The notes under the pieces: model-generated | The model's input: only the letters and a program-made list of their open reading frames with translations | Databases searched by the model: none | Told to the model about the DNA's origin: nothing | Made by a program: the position numbers and the translations under genes | Part shown: positions 21,737 to 26,528 of the stretch, piece after piece | Layout of the letters: each line of letters opens with the position of its first letter | Position numbering within the stretch: position 1 is the stretch's first letter | Source of the DNA: Escherichia phage JP4 | Direction: 5' to 3' (one strand) | Sequence record: PQ330092 | Length of the DNA: 64,000 nucleotides

Positions 21737-21964
21737 ATGACAAATACTCTTAAGTACTACCTCAATACTCTAAATGAACTAGAGTACGGGGAATTTCTCG
21801 CGGATAGTTCGTGGCTAATTGAGCTAAAAAATTATAATAGTCCAGGATGCACCCTTATGATGAACAATGCAATTGATACCCTCATTGTGAGTATTTTACA
21901 CAGCAACATCTGCGGGGATAGCAATAAACAATTATCAAAAATCTTAGTACTGCTATCTATATGA
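21737..21964 (+). CDS. small-protein family member 1 (75 aa)
   Basis: AAGGAG SD; C-terminus ..ILVLLSI resembles the LKLISI subfamily. Confidence 0.7.
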   Translation: MTNTLKYYLNTLNELEYGEFLADSSWLIELKNYNSPGCTLMMNNAIDTLIVSILHSNICGDSNKQLSKILVLLSI

Positions 21965-22164
21965 ATATCGAACAGTACTACATCGATGCACTACCAACAA
22001 AAGGTCTACGTGAAAGCCTACTGCATACACAAACTAATTTCAAACACCTCAAACGTAGCCCTAAACTCCTGAACTCGTACAGGAATAATAACATAAGAAA
22101 TGCTTTACAAGGGGTAGAATGTATGCAATACTATTACATCCTTACCCTATTAATCGAGTACTAA
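21961..22164 (+). CDS. small-protein family member 2 (67 aa)
   Basis: ATGA overlap; contains N.R.AL and YYYILTLLIEY. Confidence 0.7.
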   Translation: MNIEQYYIDALPTKGLRESLLHTQTNFKHLKRSPKLLNSYRNNNIRNALQGVECMQYYYILTLLIEY

Positions 22165-22165
22165 T

Positions 22166-22375
22166 ATGAATACTGAACATAAAGAATTCTACACCAAATA
22201 CCTTAGCAACGAAGAACAATTGTTTCTAAGGAGTGTATCACCTGTAAGTACCAATACTCAATTCGGTAGAGATTGCTTTAATAATTGTATACGTAGTACT
22301 CTAGAAGCAATCGAATGCAATAACAAAAATATTATGTACTCAGGTTTAATAGGACTAATATATTTCTATGAATAA
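22166..22375 (+). CDS. small-protein family member 3 (69 aa)
   Basis: MNTEHKEFY..FNNCI..YSGLIGLIYFYE; close paralog of 25747..25956. Confidence 0.8.
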   Translation: MNTEHKEFYTKYLSNEEQLFLRSVSPVSTNTQFGRDCFNNCIRSTLEAIECNNKNIMYSGLIGLIYFYE

Positions 22376-22562
22376 TCATAAAGATTTCTATTGTAGTAAA
22401 CTACCCAAACAAGAACAGCTATCATTCTCTTTAGCACCACCTATGAGAAAGGATAATCTGTATTATAATTACGATTTCAGGATGGTGACACGTTATGCAA
22501 TAGAACATCAGTTCCCTGAAACTAAGTACCGCTCTATCCTGAACCTCATCTTTAAGTTCTAA
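22368..22562 (+). CDS. small-protein family member 4 (64 aa)
   Basis: MNNHKDFY..; 8-nt ATGAATAA overlap, the same as at 25949. Confidence 0.75.
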   Translation: MNNHKDFYCSKLPKQEQLSFSLAPPMRKDNLYYNYDFRMVTRYAIEHQFPETKYRSILNLIFKF

Positions 22563-22614
22563 AAGGTACACCAGGGACCGAGTACTTTAATATAGTAAGG
22601 CTAATTACATTATA

Positions 22615-22800
22615 ATGAATCATATAAGCTACTACTACCAACAACTATCCGACAGAGACAAGTACAGTCACAACTCCCATGTGTGGTACTACAAACGCGG
22701 CAGTATAAGAGACAAACAACATTACTTCTGTATTTCTATTAAAGAAGCACTGACAACTAAGTACACGTACCGAGCAGTACTTAAACTTATTGAAATGTAA
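22615..22800 (+). CDS. small-protein family member 5 (61 aa)
   Basis: ..KYTYRAVLKLIEM C-terminus. Confidence 0.7.
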   Translation: MNHISYYYQQLSDRDKYSHNSHVWYYKRGSIRDKQHYFCISIKEALTTKYTYRAVLKLIEM

Positions 22801-22810
22801 AGAGAATACT

Positions 22811-22993
22811 ATGAACATTGAATTGTACTTAAGTAAATTACAGCCTGGCGATAGATTCATCTACAATAAGTTCGAATTCAACTACAAGAACGGGAGCAAC
22901 AAATATCGTCGAGGATACCTATATACAAGCACAAGAGATGCACAAAACGAAAAGTACACATACAGAGAAGTACTTAAACTAATCTCTATTTGA
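22811..22993 (+). CDS. small-protein family member 6 (60 aa)
   Basis: Track ORF 22790 trimmed to ATG 22811, which matches the array's GAATACTATG junction; ..KYTYREVLKLISI. Confidence 0.7.
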   Translation: MNIELYLSKLQPGDRFIYNKFEFNYKNGSNKYRRGYLYTSTRDAQNEKYTYREVLKLISI

Positions 22994-23001
22994 GGTAATA
23001 T

Positions 23002-23187
23002 ATGAATACATTTGAGTACTATACCAATAAACTATCTATGCCTGAAAGATCTCATCTCTATGTGTGGAGAAATGCGTATAAAAGCGGCAATAAACTTATA
23101 CAAAGAAATTCCCTTACAGTGTGTACAAATTTAATTAAAGCAGAGTACCGCACATATATTGAAGTACTCAAACTGATAGCAATATAA
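23002..23187 (+). CDS. small-protein family member 7 (61 aa)
   Basis: MNTFEYY..EYRTYIEVLKLIAI. Confidence 0.75.
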   Translation: MNTFEYYTNKLSMPERSHLYVWRNAYKSGNKLIQRNSLTVCTNLIKAEYRTYIEVLKLIAI

Positions 23188-23195
23188 GGTACTCT

Positions 23196-23375
23196 ATGCA
23201 AGAATTCTATATCTATAACCTCCAGCACAAAGATAGATACAACTATAATAAATTCCAAAGGTACTACACAGTCGGGAACAAAAGAGATAAAAAACGTTAT
23301 CTACTCTCGTGTACAGTAGAAGCACAAAACGAAAAGTACACGTACAGAGAAGTACTTAAACTAATCTCAATCTAA
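23196..23375 (+). CDS. small-protein family member 8 (59 aa; below the track cutoff)
   Basis: My translation: MQEFYIYNLQHKDRYNYNKFQRYYTVGNKRDKKRYLLSCTVEAQNEKYTYREVLKLISI. Confidence 0.7.
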   Translation: MQEFYIYNLQHKDRYNYNKFQRYYTVGNKRDKKRYLLSCTVEAQNEKYTYREVLKLISI

Positions 23376-23382
23376 GGTAGAC

Positions 23383-23571
23383 ATGAACACTTTTGAGTAC
23401 TACTTCAATAAACTAAACCACATAGAACAAAGTATGCACCACACATTTATTCAGAACCATCAATCATCTTCACCTCTAATTAAAAACATATCGATTGAGA
23501 TTATCACTACCCGTGTACAGTCATCTGAACGTTATATGTATATTGATGTACTGAAACTCATCTCTATGTAA
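23383..23571 (+). CDS. small-protein family member 9 (62 aa)
   Basis: MNTFEYYFNKL..RYMYIDVLKLISM. Confidence 0.75.
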   Translation: MNTFEYYFNKLNHIEQSMHHTFIQNHQSSSPLIKNISIEIITTRVQSSERYMYIDVLKLISM

Positions 23572-23579
23572 GGAATACT

Positions 23580-24985: not shown

Positions 24986-24986
24986 T

Positions 24987-25169
24987 ATGCACAAAGAATA
25001 CTACACACAATTTCTCCCCAGCATTTTTGAACACTACGCCAGATACAAAGTCCCTATGGATAACGATTTGGCAGTACTGGGATTCAATAACTGCATAGAA
25101 CGAAGTATAGAAAATAGTAGTAGTTATGACCAGCTATATAACACTATCCTACTTATATTCAGGTACTAA
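24987..25169 (+). CDS. small-protein family member 14 (60 aa)
   Basis: MHKEYY..FNNCIE..LYNTILLIFRY. Confidence 0.8.
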   Translation: MHKEYYTQFLPSIFEHYARYKVPMDNDLAVLGFNNCIERSIENSSSYDQLYNTILLIFRY

Positions 25170-25170
25170 T

Positions 25171-25359
25171 ATGCATAAAGAATACTACACAAAATATTTC
25201 CCAATGTACCTCAGTACTAATCTATTAGATAAACCTCGCGGTATCAATGCACAAAACGATAAAGTGTACTTTACTATGTGCACTAAAGCATGTATACTAG
25301 ATCATGACAGCTACCATCGAGTACTGTATCATACCCTGTACCTAGCTTTCGTATTCTAA
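25171..25359 (+). CDS. small-protein family member 15 (62 aa)
   Basis: Track ORF 25126 trimmed to MHKEYYTKYFP..; GGTACTAATATG junction as in neighbours. Confidence 0.75.
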   Translation: MHKEYYTKYFPMYLSTNLLDKPRGINAQNDKVYFTMCTKACILDHDSYHRVLYHTLYLAFVF

Positions 25360-25368
25360 GAGAACAAT

Positions 25369-25554
25369 ATGCATAAAGAATTCTACTTAAGCCATCTCGA
25401 TCTAAACTCCCAAATGCTTATACCACTAATCCCAATAGATATCAAGGATAAGAAAAATACCGAACAATTCATTTACCATACACAGTGTGCGATCACCCCA
25501 AATTACATTCCATATGAATTGTACTACATTATCGCCCTAATATATAGGTACTAA
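25369..25554 (+). CDS. small-protein family member 16 (61 aa)
   Basis: MHKEFY..LYYIIALIYRY. Confidence 0.8.
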   Translation: MHKEFYLSHLDLNSQMLIPLIPIDIKDKKNTEQFIYHTQCAITPNYIPYELYYIIALIYRY

Positions 25555-25555
25555 T

Positions 25556-25741
25556 ATGCATAGAGAATACTACACACAATTTGTTAAAGGGAACTACAAA
25601 TGTGCCGTACCCAGAACCCCTTTAAATTCTCATGACCCAAGTACTATATTCTTGTTTAATGACGCAATACGTACAGTACTCAATACTAAAGATGAAGATG
25701 TGCAGTACGTATTCTTACTATTACTTATATACAGACACTAA
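25556..25741 (+). CDS. small-protein family member 17 (61 aa)
   Basis: MHREYY..FNDAIR..FLLLLIYRH. Confidence 0.8.
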   Translation: MHREYYTQFVKGNYKCAVPRTPLNSHDPSTIFLFNDAIRTVLNTKDEDVQYVFLLLLIYRH

Positions 25742-25746
25742 CTAAT

Positions 25747-25956
25747 ATGAATAAAGAACATAAAGAATTCTACTCCAAATACATAAGCCCCTCAGAACAA
25801 ATGTTTCTAAGGACTACTCCACCTTTAAGTACTAATACATTTTTCGGCAGAGTATGCTACAATAATTGTATTCAAATGACTTTAAACGCAAATGAAGATG
25901 GTAACAGTACTAACCTGTACTCAGGTATCATAGGTATACTATTCCTGTATGAATAA
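25747..25956 (+). CDS. small-protein family member 18 (69 aa)
   Basis: MNKEHKEFY..YNNCI..YSGIIGILFLYE; close paralog of 22166..22375. Confidence 0.8.
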   Translation: MNKEHKEFYSKYISPSEQMFLRTTPPLSTNTFFGRVCYNNCIQMTLNANEDGNSTNLYSGIIGILFLYE

Positions 25957-26137
25957 TTACAAAGACTTCTATTTGAATACACTACCTACTGTACTTTCTC
26001 TAAGTGCTCAATGTAAAATCCCGCTGGATAATGCTTACGCCAGATATAGCTATTCCATAACTGTTAATCGATGTATAGAGAATCATTGCAGTACTAACCA
26101 GTACTATAACATAATCCTACTTATATTCAGGTACTAA
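25949..26137 (+). CDS. small-protein family member 19 (62 aa)
   Basis: MNNYKDFY..VNRCIE..YYNIILLIFRY. Confidence 0.8.
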   Translation: MNNYKDFYLNTLPTVLSLSAQCKIPLDNAYARYSYSITVNRCIENHCSTNQYYNIILLIFRY

Positions 26138-26138
26138 T

Positions 26139-26321
26139 ATGAATACTGAACATAAAGAATTCTATATACGAAAACTAACATTCGTCCCCGTAAGAATATA
26201 TAAAGAATGCGACCCAAGATTATACCTATGGCACTTCAATGAGTGCATAAAAGATTCTATATACCATAAGAACTATAAAGAACAATTGTGCTCAGTACTA
26301 ACACTAGTACTATCATATTAA
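26139..26321 (+). CDS. small-protein family member 20 (60 aa)
   Basis: MNTEHKEFY..FNECIK.. Confidence 0.75.
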   Translation: MNTEHKEFYIRKLTFVPVRIYKECDPRLYLWHFNECIKDSIYHKNYKEQLCSVLTLVLSY

Positions 26322-26336
26322 TTAATAGAGAATACT

Positions 26337-26528
26337 ATGTATAAAAACTTCTATATAAGTAAACTAAAAGAAAATGAACAAGTATGGATTAGATCTATAA
26401 TTCCACTGGCATTTAATAGATATGCATTTAACAGATGTACCGAGATTGCTATAGACCCTTATAATATCAAAGAGAATGTACAGTATAATCAGTACTACTA
26501 TATCTTAATGCTTATATATAGGAAGTAA
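26337..26528 (+). CDS. small-protein family member 21 (63 aa)
   Basis: MYKNFY..FNRCTE..YYYILMLIYRK. Confidence 0.75.
   Translation: MYKNFYISKLKENEQVWIRSIIPLAFNRYAFNRCTEIAIDPYNIKENVQYNQYYYILMLIYRK

Follow-up and report, generated by a model that had tools for sequence, protein, structure and literature searches.

The window, a 64,000-nucleotide stretch of Escherichia phage JP4 (sequence record PQ330092), belongs to an Asteriusvirus, i.e. a 121Q/PBECO4-like jumbo coliphage, and shares 99.4% identity with phage E9.1. At the right-hand extremity of the unique genome (21737-26528, plus strand) lie 21 back-to-back small open reading frames (ORFs) of 59-75 amino acids (aa), all on the plus strand and initiated with ATG, together with one unrelated ORF of 219 aa (23770-24429). 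All of these ORFs, including the three of 59 aa (m08, m10 and m12), had been recognized in the initial annotation and are indeed present. The features of the region are:

21683..21711, plus strand: promoter, TTGACA and TACTAT separated by a 17-nt spacer with the palindrome CAGTACTG at 21695-21702
21737..21964, plus strand: m01, 75 aa, first cistron, family membership unproven
21961..22164, plus strand: m02, 67 aa, probable remote family member, 4-nt overlap with m01 (ATGA)
22166..22375, plus strand: m03, 69 aa, subfamily B, C-terminal GLIGLIYFYE
22368..22562, plus strand: m04, 64 aa, subfamily B, 8-nt overlap with m03 (ATGAATAA)
22563..22614, plus strand: sole long intergenic gap, 52 nt, between m04 and m05
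22615..22800, plus strand: m05, 61 aa, subfamily A
22811..22993, plus strand: m06, 60 aa, subfamily A
23002..23187, plus strand: m07, 61 aa, subfamily A
23196..23375, plus strand: m08, 59 aa, subfamily A
23383..23571, plus strand: m09, 62 aa, subfamily A
23580..23759, plus strand: m10, 59 aa, subfamily A
23770..24429, plus strand: X, 219 aa, unrelated to the small-protein family, phrog_29152
24422..24604, plus strand: m11, 60 aa, subfamily B, 8-nt overlap with X
24606..24785, plus strand: m12, 59 aa, subfamily B
24794..24985, plus strand: m13, 63 aa, subfamily B, member used for AlphaFold
24987..25169, plus strand: m14, 60 aa, subfamily B
25171..25359, plus strand: m15, 62 aa, subfamily B
25369..25554, plus strand: m16, 61 aa, subfamily B
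25556..25741, plus strand: m17, 61 aa, subfamily B
25747..25956, plus strand: m18, 69 aa, subfamily B
25949..26137, plus strand: m19, 62 aa, subfamily B, 8-nt overlap with m18
26139..26321, plus strand: m20, 60 aa, subfamily B
26337..26528, plus strand: m21, 63 aa, subfamily B, last cistron
26792..46905, no strand: right direct terminal repeat (DTR), 20,114 bp, starting 263 bp downstream of the array

Neighbouring genes had been described as overlapping or separated by 0-10 nt, which holds for most junctions with the exception of m04 to m05 (52 nt) and m20 to m21 (15 nt). Eleven junctions are 1 nt long or overlapping; AGGTACTAATATG occurs five times, in addition to one GAGTACTAATATG variant, and the ATGAATAA overlap joins m03 to m04 as well as m18 to m19. 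The junctions are coupled, either by overlapping stop/start codons or by a Shine-Dalgarno motif embedded in the last codons of the preceding gene (AGG TAC TAA T ATG), and no terminator-like site was found on the plus strand within the array. The 52-nt gap contains a weak promoter-like site (22587-22616), indel breakpoints recur around it (22557-22569), and in the gene order of several relatives, e.g. slurp01, A4, UB, BF17 and fEgEco12, an extra m02-like gene is present at this position.

The promoter noted initially, TTGACA-17-TACTAT, is of the sigma-70 type with 10 of 12 consensus matches, and it is unchanged across ten related phages: the -35 hexamer, the CAGTACTG palindrome and the -10 hexamer are invariant, and substitutions occur only between these elements. 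Sites found in the array region with a consensus promoter scan did not exceed those in shuffled sequence. Promoters built alike, with TTGACA, a spacer containing CAGTACTG, and TAnnnT, are found again inside the adjacent terminal repeat. The first 17,095 bp of this repeat recur with 100% identity at 46906-64000 as the left repeat, and its boundary, AGTAGGCAGAGGAAGTCTGCC, is at the DTR start that follows from the repeat length in fEgEco12 (20,993 bp, determined by PhageTerm); in that phage, restriction digests confirmed the linear arrangement and the long repeats (PMC13070987). In the related phage CBB, RpoD-like promoters cluster among the short genes preceding the terminal repeat, a suspected early region, and some also occur inside the repeat (PMC5259590). 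The promoter type and the analogy with CBB suggest, indirectly, that the JP4 array may be expressed early.

Nineteen of the 21 small ORFs form one superfamily, with 13 members in subfamily B and six in subfamily A (pairwise E-values down to 1e-28), and the two subfamilies, compared as enriched profiles, can be aligned from end to end (hhalign probability 93%, E 3.5e-7). A full-length alignment of m02 with B (hhalign probability 72%, E 3.4e-5) makes it a probable remote member, whereas m01 has no statistical link to A or B beyond motif-level similarity, but shows a weak link to the m02 class (P 6e-4) and has orthologs in all ten relatives. The proposal of 21 tandem paralogs is thus shown for 19 genes, probable for m02 and unproven for m01. 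Amino acid identities between paralogs range from 11 to 59%. The C-termini described previously were found again, EVLKLISI in m05-m10 and GLIGLIYFYE in m03 and m18. The best paralog match of m03 is m18 (E 9e-29; 59% identity), and m18-m19 and m03-m04 are corresponding pairs, also at the DNA level (22160-22405 versus 25741-25986, 74%). The interspersed X (phrog_29152, a family without assigned function, E 2.7e-113; AlphaFold pLDDT 37.6) is not related to A or B, is restricted to the genus, and always separates the A block from the long B block.

Subfamily B has already been clustered publicly from Asteriusvirus genomes as phrog_11711, an entry that carries no function, and its matches are end-to-end with E-values of 1.7e-12 (m03), 7.1e-24 (m21), 3.5e-25 (m04) and 1.2e-27 (m13). 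The entry does not cover m01 and m02, and m07 and m08, the two of six A members that were scanned, did not match it at E 0.01. Nor does the entry include the link between A and B, how the operon is built, how its copy number changes or its location beside the terminal repeat. Family searches of 5.8 billion proteins yielded 73 and 32 clusters, whose sources are phage records of the Asteriusvirus type, metagenome contigs and E. coli assemblies with contigs of phage size, and a search of 1.84 billion proteins yielded 30 representatives, one of them a spurious repeat protein. Among 50,697 phage records, the family is present in 35, every one an Escherichia or Salmonella jumbo phage, to which it is confined; several records leave some of the array genes unannotated. 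No family match was found in Pfam, PDB sequences or PDB folds, and in PHROGs nothing beyond phrog_11711, in agreement with the initial observation that a recognizable domain is lacking. PADLOC, which models defence-system proteins and not anti-defence proteins, also gave no match, and no likeness to a characterized protein, including those of anti-defence and host takeover, was found.

Structure prediction for m13 resulted in a confident helical model (pLDDT 91.1, pTM 0.76) with helices at residues 4-9, 14-17, 30-45 and 49-62. The predicted fold is a long helical hairpin with two short N-terminal helices packed on top, and no specific neighbour was detected among known structures. In the B-family alignment, entropy is low at hydrophobic positions (7, 8, 12, 25, 36, 39, 44, 53, 56, 57, 59-61) and high outside of them, and, judging from sequence periodicity, the hydrophobic core appears to be kept while the variable positions are presumably on the surface. 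The N-terminal H-K-E-F/Y-Y motif is near-invariant among the members. However, the conservation of the terminal motifs could result partly from constraints at the junctions, i.e. translation coupling and recombination, and not from protein function. Only one Cys is conserved (in 75% of the B-family alignment), and a Cys/His zinc motif is absent. As observed initially, there is no hydrophobic segment of transmembrane length, with a maximal 19-residue Kyte-Doolittle mean of 1.18, and the Tyr content of the small proteins is 11%. Taken together, the array is a single polycistronic operon for a genus-specific family whose members are soluble, rich in Tyr, about 60 aa long and predicted to be helical.

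The array is true coding sequence and not a product of chance, because its ORFs are open and syntenic in ten phages (nucleotide identity 72-99%) and the pooled dN/dS (omega) is 0.28-0.48 (versus A4, pS is 0.31 and pN 0.10). Flanking genes have values of 0.03-0.32, about half of those of the array. An omega well under 1 indicates relaxed purifying selection, and positive selection was not demonstrated. The view of a rapidly diversifying family therefore holds only in moderation, i.e. for paralog divergence, copy number and the elevated omega, and not with respect to positive selection. The number of small genes in relatives varies from 16 to 22 and differs even between near-identical phages. 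Nine close relatives have the gene order 1-2-B-(B)-(2)-A(3-6)-X-B(8-12), the divergent JNE01 has 1-2-2-A-B-A-X-B x10, and all array ORFs are intact in the ten phages, including JNE01. Indel breakpoints cluster at gene junctions, 18 of 29 having a start codon no more than 25 nt away versus 23% expected (p 7e-6), and the junctions are the most conserved DNA among the paralogs, reaching 96-100% identity between genes whose products share about 30% of their amino acids. The stable layout, together with 90-100% identity of many orthologs between phages, means that an arms race fits no better than maintained, non-redundant housekeeping functions.

Several known systems resemble the array in part. 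African swine fever virus (MGF110/360/505) and poxviruses (terminal host-range families, "genomic accordions") contain tandem paralogs adjoining terminal repeats, the copy number of which varies between isolates via recombination between paralogs, and which function in host range and immune evasion. The JP4 array shares the location of tandem paralogs by a terminal repeat and the variable copy number, but this is an analogy only, without kinship in sequence or fold, and the JP4 proteins are far smaller and the host is a bacterium. Clusters of anti-CRISPR and anti-defence genes are expressed early and, like the array, encode in tandem small (50-150 aa), soluble, fast-evolving proteins without recognizable domains. 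In such loci the proteins are usually unrelated to each other and accompanied by a linked HTH regulator (aca), and the loci are patchy among close relatives, whereas the JP4 array consists of paralogs, the locus was found in all the Asteriusvirus arrays examined, and no HTH regulator was detected among its scanned proteins. The hyperplastic regions of T4-like phages contain small early genes. Both these regions and the short-gene region of CBB (PMC5259590), which presumably function in takeover of, or adaptation to, the host, resemble the array in their location, a variable section of a large myovirus genome, and in their dense, short, lineage-specific genes without assigned function behind host-type sigma-70 promoters; however, they are mosaics of mostly unrelated genes, in contrast to about 20 consecutive paralogs with one fold in one coupled operon.

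Four alternatives to a function directed against host proteins have to be weighed. The small proteins might bind nucleic acids or have a regulatory function, with the genome or transcription of the phage itself as their target; coating of DNA or binding to the abundant CAGTACTG palindromes would be examples. The palindrome occurs at 79 sites versus 0.6 expected, in the array promoter and in terminal-repeat promoters, so that a dedicated binding factor is plausible, and subfamily A is basic (pI 9.2-9.6 and net charge +2.6 to +5.6 for five of six members). In addition, small zinc-ribbon proteins have undergone a lineage-specific expansion to about 35 copies in the jumbo Bacillus phage G, and a role as transcription factors or in DNA binding has been proposed for them (PMC7824862). 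This is likewise a case of tens of copies of one very small domain, but the JP4 proteins have a different fold and no zinc motif, and their genes are strictly tandem in one operon. This alternative is unlikely, as subfamily B is charge-mixed (pI 5.3-9.4) and about 20 divergent binders would not be needed for a single palindrome. Very unlikely is a role as chaperones, assembly factors or attachment partners of the RCC1-like virion proteins, one per variant. The 12 RCC1-like paralogs (7382-21652, minus strand) adjoin the array divergently across a common 84-bp intergenic region, both arrays are expanded in Asteriusvirus, and RCC1-like proteins are virion components in phAPEC6. Nevertheless, most RCC1 genes have their own terminator hairpin and TAAATATAGTATAAT box, in contrast to one operon with a TTGACA promoter, the copy numbers of RCC1-like and small genes are unequal (12 versus 21 in JP4, 13 versus 16 in 121Q), and the phAPEC6 virion proteome contains no family member, although a 4.7-kDa protein was detected there.

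The array could also be largely dispensable, a set of recombination-prone cassettes that is sustained by duplication and by gene conversion at the homologous junctions and in which each gene has a weak or redundant function. Whole-gene gain and loss between close relatives, an omega above that of neighbouring genes, junctions as the most conserved DNA, and array genes missing from the annotation of several records would fit. Yet the intact ORFs in ten phages including JNE01, the omega well under 1, the retention of old paralogs in a conserved block order, and the confident AlphaFold model, which points to a consistent, foldable family, make this improbable. Quite unlikely is a middle or late operon, or a module for competition between phages (superinfection exclusion), in place of early host takeover. 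The promoter-spacer palindrome could act as an operator that delays or gates expression, and jumbo phages of the same group encode their own sigma factor (PMC11895373), but the conserved -35 and -10 elements are typical host sigma-70 signals, the TATAAATA late-type motif is absent from the entire window, and a membrane segment, a trait of many exclusion proteins, is lacking.

We tentatively favour a translationally coupled early operon of paralogous small binders against host proteins. The family would have expanded by tandem duplication, and whole-gene cassettes would still be reshuffled via recombination at the gene junctions. Transcription by host RNA polymerase would begin shortly after infection at a sigma-70 promoter belonging to the class that also occurs in the terminal repeat. 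The array products probably act early in host interaction, for which an anti-defence or host-binding role is plausible but still speculative. The products would represent a panel of small protein binders, each of which would block or redirect a different host protein, either a defence component or a host factor.

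It is firmly established that the array of small genes is a genuine, translationally coupled operon, which encodes a genus-restricted superfamily of ~60-aa helical proteins, that it lies at the edge of the direct terminal repeat (DTR), and that its evolution proceeds through tandem duplication and the recombination of cassettes. The initial annotation had listed 21 small ORFs, an unrelated longer ORF among them and a consensus promoter ahead of them, all of which were recovered, the small ORFs by an ORF listing and direct translation:

21683-21711: consensus promoter-like site ahead of the array, TTGACA-17-TACTAT
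21737-26528, plus strand: array with 21 ATG-initiated ORFs of 59-75 aa (m01-m21)
23770-24429, plus strand: unrelated 219-aa ORF (X) within the array

The annotated gaps of 0-10 nt were found at most junctions, with m04/m05 (52 nt) and m20/m21 (15 nt) as the exceptions; spacings of 1 nt (six cases) and 5-10 nt (nine cases) occur alongside overlaps of 4 or 8 nt (five cases). Five junctions have the sequence AGGTACTAATATG, in which the Arg-Tyr-stop codons of the preceding gene constitute the Shine-Dalgarno motif of the next gene, and the junctions within the block m05-m10 have the sequence TAAGGTAnnnATG. A terminator scan revealed no plus-strand terminator-like sites inside the array, and a weak promoter-like site was found at 22587-22616. 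Co-directional genes, one upstream promoter, the lack of internal terminators and coupled junctions characterize the array as a polycistronic operon, the transcript of which is predicted from the sequence.

The array ORFs are open and their order is kept in nine relatives with 72-99% nucleotide identity, and also in the more divergent phage JNE01. Pooled dN/dS values of the array, calculated by the Nei-Gojobori method for reciprocal-best orthologs, were 0.28 (A4), 0.48 (TH47), 0.45 (121Q) and 0.41 (BF17), which indicates purifying selection on the proteins and thus identifies the array ORFs as coding sequences. For flanking genes (one RCC1-like gene and three genes of the terminal repeat), the same method gave values of 0.03-0.32, typically ~0.2, and therefore non-synonymous change in the array is about twice as rapid as in its neighbours. 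A non-coding RNA or repeat element as the identity of the array was rejected because there was no Rfam match at E<=0.1 in 20000-31000 and the ORFs are under purifying selection; a tRNA scan found no tRNA genes in the window.

The description of the 21 genes as tandem paralogs has been demonstrated for 19 of them, whereas m02 is a probable member and m01 a candidate. An all-against-all phmmer comparison resolved two groups, A (m05-m10) and B (m03, m04 and m11-m21), with within-group E values down to 1e-28 and global amino-acid identities between paralogs of 11-59%. When the profiles were built from members in the window alone, the link between A and B was weak (P 2e-4); once database homologs had been added (34 and 82 sequences in the enriched profiles), hhalign aligned them with 93% probability and an E value of 3.5e-7 over 55 collinear columns. 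By this full-length profile-profile similarity, together with the collinear motifs, it is demonstrated at the sequence level that A and B form a single superfamily. The m02 class aligned with B over its full length (hhalign probability 72%, E 3.4e-5), which makes its membership probable, while m01 matched A or B with a profile probability below 4% and m02 weakly (28%, P 6e-4). The C-terminus of X was considered as a fused family domain and rejected (hhalign probability <=2%), and hhalign detected no relatedness of X to the A/B family.

A megablast search with 21600-26600 retrieved 33 phage records, all of Escherichia or Salmonella jumbo phages, with vB_EcoM_E9.1 as the best match (99.4% identity, query coverage 100%); among the relatives, 121Q, PBECO4-type phages, fEgEco12, BF17 and others are classed as Asteriusvirus. 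Wherever a record is annotated, the matched genes are named 'hypothetical protein', and the minus-strand genes upstream of the array 'regulator of chromosome condensation (RCC1)-like'. By tblastn, the family was found in 35 of 50,697 phage records, all of them Escherichia/Salmonella phages of 310-386 kb, and the ORF under the match is often unannotated. Since some of the small ORFs are unannotated in many Asteriusvirus genomes, the family is under-counted in protein databases; records in which some array ORFs are missing from the annotation include SP27, Sharanji, slurp01, PBECO4, BF17 and CRJP21, among others. Profile searches against 5.8 billion proteins yielded 73 clusters for B and 32 for A, which stem from records of Asteriusvirus-type phages, from contigs of phage size within E. 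coli assemblies and from metagenome contigs. HMMER, run exhaustively over 1.84 billion representatives, gave 30 hits, which are of ~60 aa (one being a 41-aa fragment) apart from one spurious low-complexity protein. The protein P0121 (531 aa, seven matched stretches) was considered as a polyprotein relative and discarded, as it is a low-complexity repeat protein and the match was taken as spurious.

Group B corresponds to phrog_11711 (PHROGs v4, function unknown), which was matched by m03, m04, m13, m14 and m21 with E values of 1.7e-12 to 1.2e-27 across profile positions 1-62; there was no PHROG match at E 0.01 for m07 and m08, the scanned representatives of A, or for m01 and m02. X belongs to phrog_29152, also of unknown function, and its homologs are genus-restricted with at least 65% identity. 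In agreement with the annotated lack of a recognisable domain, the eight small proteins that were scanned matched no Pfam-A family at E up to 1, and X had only a sub-threshold match to PF25376 (16.5 bits versus a cutoff of 24). The genes themselves are already public, as hypothetical genes, with B represented among the PHROGs. The literature searched contained no paper on the A/B gene family. Lineage-specific expansions of small genes are a known kind of feature in large phages, of which the array is a large and tidy example.

The AlphaFold2 model of the B protein m13, based on an alignment of 79 sequences, has a pLDDT of 91.1 and a pTM of 0.76, with predicted helices at residues 4-9, 14-17, 30-45 and 49-62; the C-terminal helix is hydrophobic along nearly its whole length, which hints at dimerisation or docking. 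X was considered as a pointer to function and set aside, given its genus-restricted homologs and an AlphaFold pLDDT of 37.6. A Foldseek search of BFVD with the m13 model retrieved two family members only, one from 121Q and one with 32% identity, and a profile search of PDB sequences gave no match below E 0.18; the family fold, as predicted, is without a specific structural neighbour in PDB or BFVD. Low-entropy hydrophobic columns are found at alignment positions 7, 8, 12, 25, 36, 39, 44, 53, 56, 57 and 59-61, there is hardly any variation in the N-terminal motif (H/Y4, K5 in 91%, E/D6, F/Y7 and Y8 in 100%), and most other positions have high entropy, a pattern that is compatible with a fixed core and a variable surface. 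Codon choice at the N-terminal motif, examined as a test of DNA-level constraint, did not clearly differ from that elsewhere. The claim that TM segments are lacking was borne out, as there is no hydrophobic stretch of TM length (maximal 19-residue Kyte-Doolittle mean 1.18). GRAVY values of the small proteins are mostly negative and 11% of their residues are Tyr, so that, judged by Kyte-Doolittle and GRAVY values, they would not be assigned to a membrane or secreted class. It should be noted that the array (22001-26000) has a GC skew of -0.16 to -0.23 and an AT skew of +0.15 to +0.20 despite its plus-strand coding, unlike the plus-strand genes of the terminal repeat, which have a positive GC skew; the skew of the array probably reflects a composition rich in Tyr, Asn, Ile and Lys and poor in Gly and Ala.

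The gene order 1-2-B-(B)-(2)-A(3-6)-X-B(8-12) is kept in the nine close relatives, JNE01 has the variant order 1-2-2-A-B-A-X-B x10, and the total number of small genes varies from 16 to 22 across the relatives. Several relatives have an extra m02-like gene of ~70 aa before the A block, which follows m04 or replaces it and is located as follows in the relatives' array loci:

L007, 3974-4183: extra m02-like gene
L003, 934-1143: extra m02-like gene
L008, 4439-4648: extra m02-like gene
L006, 3774-3986: extra m02-like gene

At this position, the window, E9.1 and 121Q retain just a 52-nt gap (window 22563-22614), which indicates the clean loss or gain of a cassette. In alignments of the window with four relatives, 18 of 29 endpoints of aligned segments lie at most 25 nt from a start codon, compared with 23% expected (binomial p 7e-6), and the remaining endpoints are mostly at the m04 stop. 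The junction DNA is the best-conserved part among the paralogs, with up to 96-100% identity over 34-46 nt between pairs that share ~30% amino-acid identity, and there are apparent two-gene duplication units, for example, m03-m04 versus m18-m19. The location of breakpoints at junctions, the conservation of junction DNA and the variation in copy number and order thus argue for gain, loss and exchange of cassettes by recombination at junction homology.

The array fills the final 4.8 kb of the unique sequence, with 263 bp between its end and the repeat; in JNE01, the same boundary motif follows the array by 318 bp. Positions 26792-43886 are identical to 46906-64000 (100% over 17,095 bp up to the window end) with a period of 20,114 bp, so that the two copies take up 26792-46905 and 46906-64000, and the boundary, at which ...cta is followed by AGTAGGCAGAGGAAGTCTGCC, coincides with the DTR start computed for fEgEco12 (374,733-bp genome, 20,993-bp repeat). 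The repeat length of fEgEco12 comes from PhageTerm, and a linear arrangement with long repeats has been confirmed by restriction digests (PMC13070987); repeats of ~20 kb have been reported for Sharanji and BF17 as well. The exact duplication and the DTR boundary indicate that the window proceeds from the unique right end through the right repeat into a second copy, the left repeat, and because the repeat is seen twice, the window crosses the joined genome ends. The ~1.9 kb across the repeat boundary (26529-28465) contain no convincing ORF, no Rfam match, at least ten copies of the palindrome CAGTACTG and several strong promoter-like sites on both strands in addition to the following features:

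26796-26812: small hairpin GGCAGAGGAAGTCTGCC, right at the repeat boundary
27157-27184: perfect consensus promoter, TTGACA-16-TATAAT, in the ORF-poor stretch

The promoter scan overall found no more sites than in shuffled sequence, and therefore the conservation of the array promoter was tested separately. In ten phages, the -35 and -10 elements are invariant, as is a palindrome of 8 bp in the spacer, and substitutions fall between these elements. The array promoter of JNE01 (L010 4574-4680) retains TTGACA and a TACAAT -10 element, with a degenerate spacer palindrome (CTGGACTG), so that the palindrome is not strictly required for the array promoter across the clade. The window has 79 copies of this palindrome, CAGTACTG, versus 0.6 expected, and they are often extended to ATTCAGTACTGAAT; the 10-mer TCAGTACTGA occurs 27 times versus 0.06 expected. 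Many copies lie within TTGACA...TAtAAT spacers, and others are clustered in non-coding DNA at the start of the terminal repeat:

21695, 26723, 26773, 27131, 27171, 27340, 28322, 28375, 29935, 37552, 45584: example sites of CAGTACTG

No description of this palindrome was found in the literature searched; it is probably an operator or promoter element for some factor. When the window, without its redundant part, was searched under strict criteria for TTGACA, a spacer with CAGTACTG and a TAnnnT -10 element, this gave five promoters, that of the array and four in the terminal repeat, and looser inspection added similar promoters in the repeat at 35431, 37552 and 38561. The 3' half of X has four copies within 250 bp (24135, 24239, 24303 and 24375), immediately ahead of the B block. 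Relatives have 0 to 4 copies within X, and of those checked, JNE01 alone lacks the copy at 24303, which codes for a conserved Y-S-T-V. The copies in X may be regulatory sites or a by-product of coding. The T4-type late promoter TATAAATA was considered and is absent from the window. The neighbours upstream of the array are organized differently:

7382-21652, minus strand: twelve RCC1-like paralogs of 245-460 aa in tandem

Ahead of most of these genes there is a terminator-like hairpin, GCCAGTACTTGATACTGGC with a run of T after it, as well as a conserved box, TAAATATAGTATAATGAATAAAGGAGG; upstream of most of the 12, the TAAATATAGTATAAT box occurs without TTGACA. With a hairpin and a box of their own, they look like separate transcription units with a promoter class unlike that of the small-gene operon, which shares the TTGACA/CAGTACTG design with the terminal repeat and not with its structural-gene neighbours.

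In the related phage CBB, RpoD-like promoters are concentrated in a short-gene region upstream of the terminal repeat, with some inside the repeat, and this region is suspected to be early (PMC5259590). By analogy with CBB, and on the basis of the sigma-70-type promoter common to the array and the terminal repeat, early expression of the array appears rather likely; no report on Asteriusvirus transcriptomics was found in the literature searched. In the favoured functional model, the small proteins would constitute a panel of small binders, each of which would neutralise a different host protein. This proposal is speculative and draws on general features, namely proteins that are small, soluble and without domains, many paralogs, a conserved core with other positions variable, an early-type promoter and a location close to the terminus in a region that varies, and it is weakened in that the layout is stable and many orthologs are highly conserved. 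No similarity in sequence or fold to characterised anti-defence proteins (Acr, Ocr/Ard and similar) was found, and PADLOC-DB gave no match at E up to 0.1, a library of defence proteins that is hence silent on an anti-defence role. In its fullest form, the proposal would make the array a library of mini-binders that the phage encodes on a ~60-aa helical scaffold not described before, in which a conserved N-terminal HKEF/YY 'handle' and the hydrophobic core would carry hypervariable surfaces, each paralog would neutralise its own variant of a host defence or host factor, and new specificities would arise by duplication and exchange of cassettes at conserved junctions beside the genome terminus. 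Such a library would parallel, in a bacterial virus, the terminal multigene families that ASFV and poxviruses possess; taken as a whole, this reading is unlikely.

Other explanations were judged to be even less probable. Group A proteins are mostly basic and B proteins charge-mixed, and a role as nucleic-acid or regulatory binders is quite improbable, to the same degree as an array that is recombination-driven and largely dispensable, an explanation that the cassette turnover favours and that the purifying selection on the proteins speaks against. Slightly more doubtful are non-early or exclusion functions, against which the sigma-70-type promoter speaks. The lowest probability is given to the small proteins being partners of the RCC1-like virion proteins: homologs of the latter, with gp549 and gp551 listed, are virion proteins in the relative phAPEC6, and none of the 62 proteins of its virion proteome is from the small-gene array, small proteins being easily missed by mass spectrometry (PMC7247149).

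Even without a function, the definition of the A/B superfamily covers genes that several GenBank records leave unannotated, the exact boundary of the terminal repeat has been located, and a common promoter/palindrome design has been defined. If the function is mundane, the array remains a lineage-specific expansion of hypothetical genes. If the small proteins act early as binders directed at the host, ~20 naturally occurring variants of a single tiny scaffold, which folds with confidence in prediction, would be available from the array; their targets could point to defences or weak points of the host that matter for jumbo-phage therapy in E. coli and Salmonella, and the array would be a clear bacterial-virus example of the evolution of a terminal multigene family via cassette recombination.
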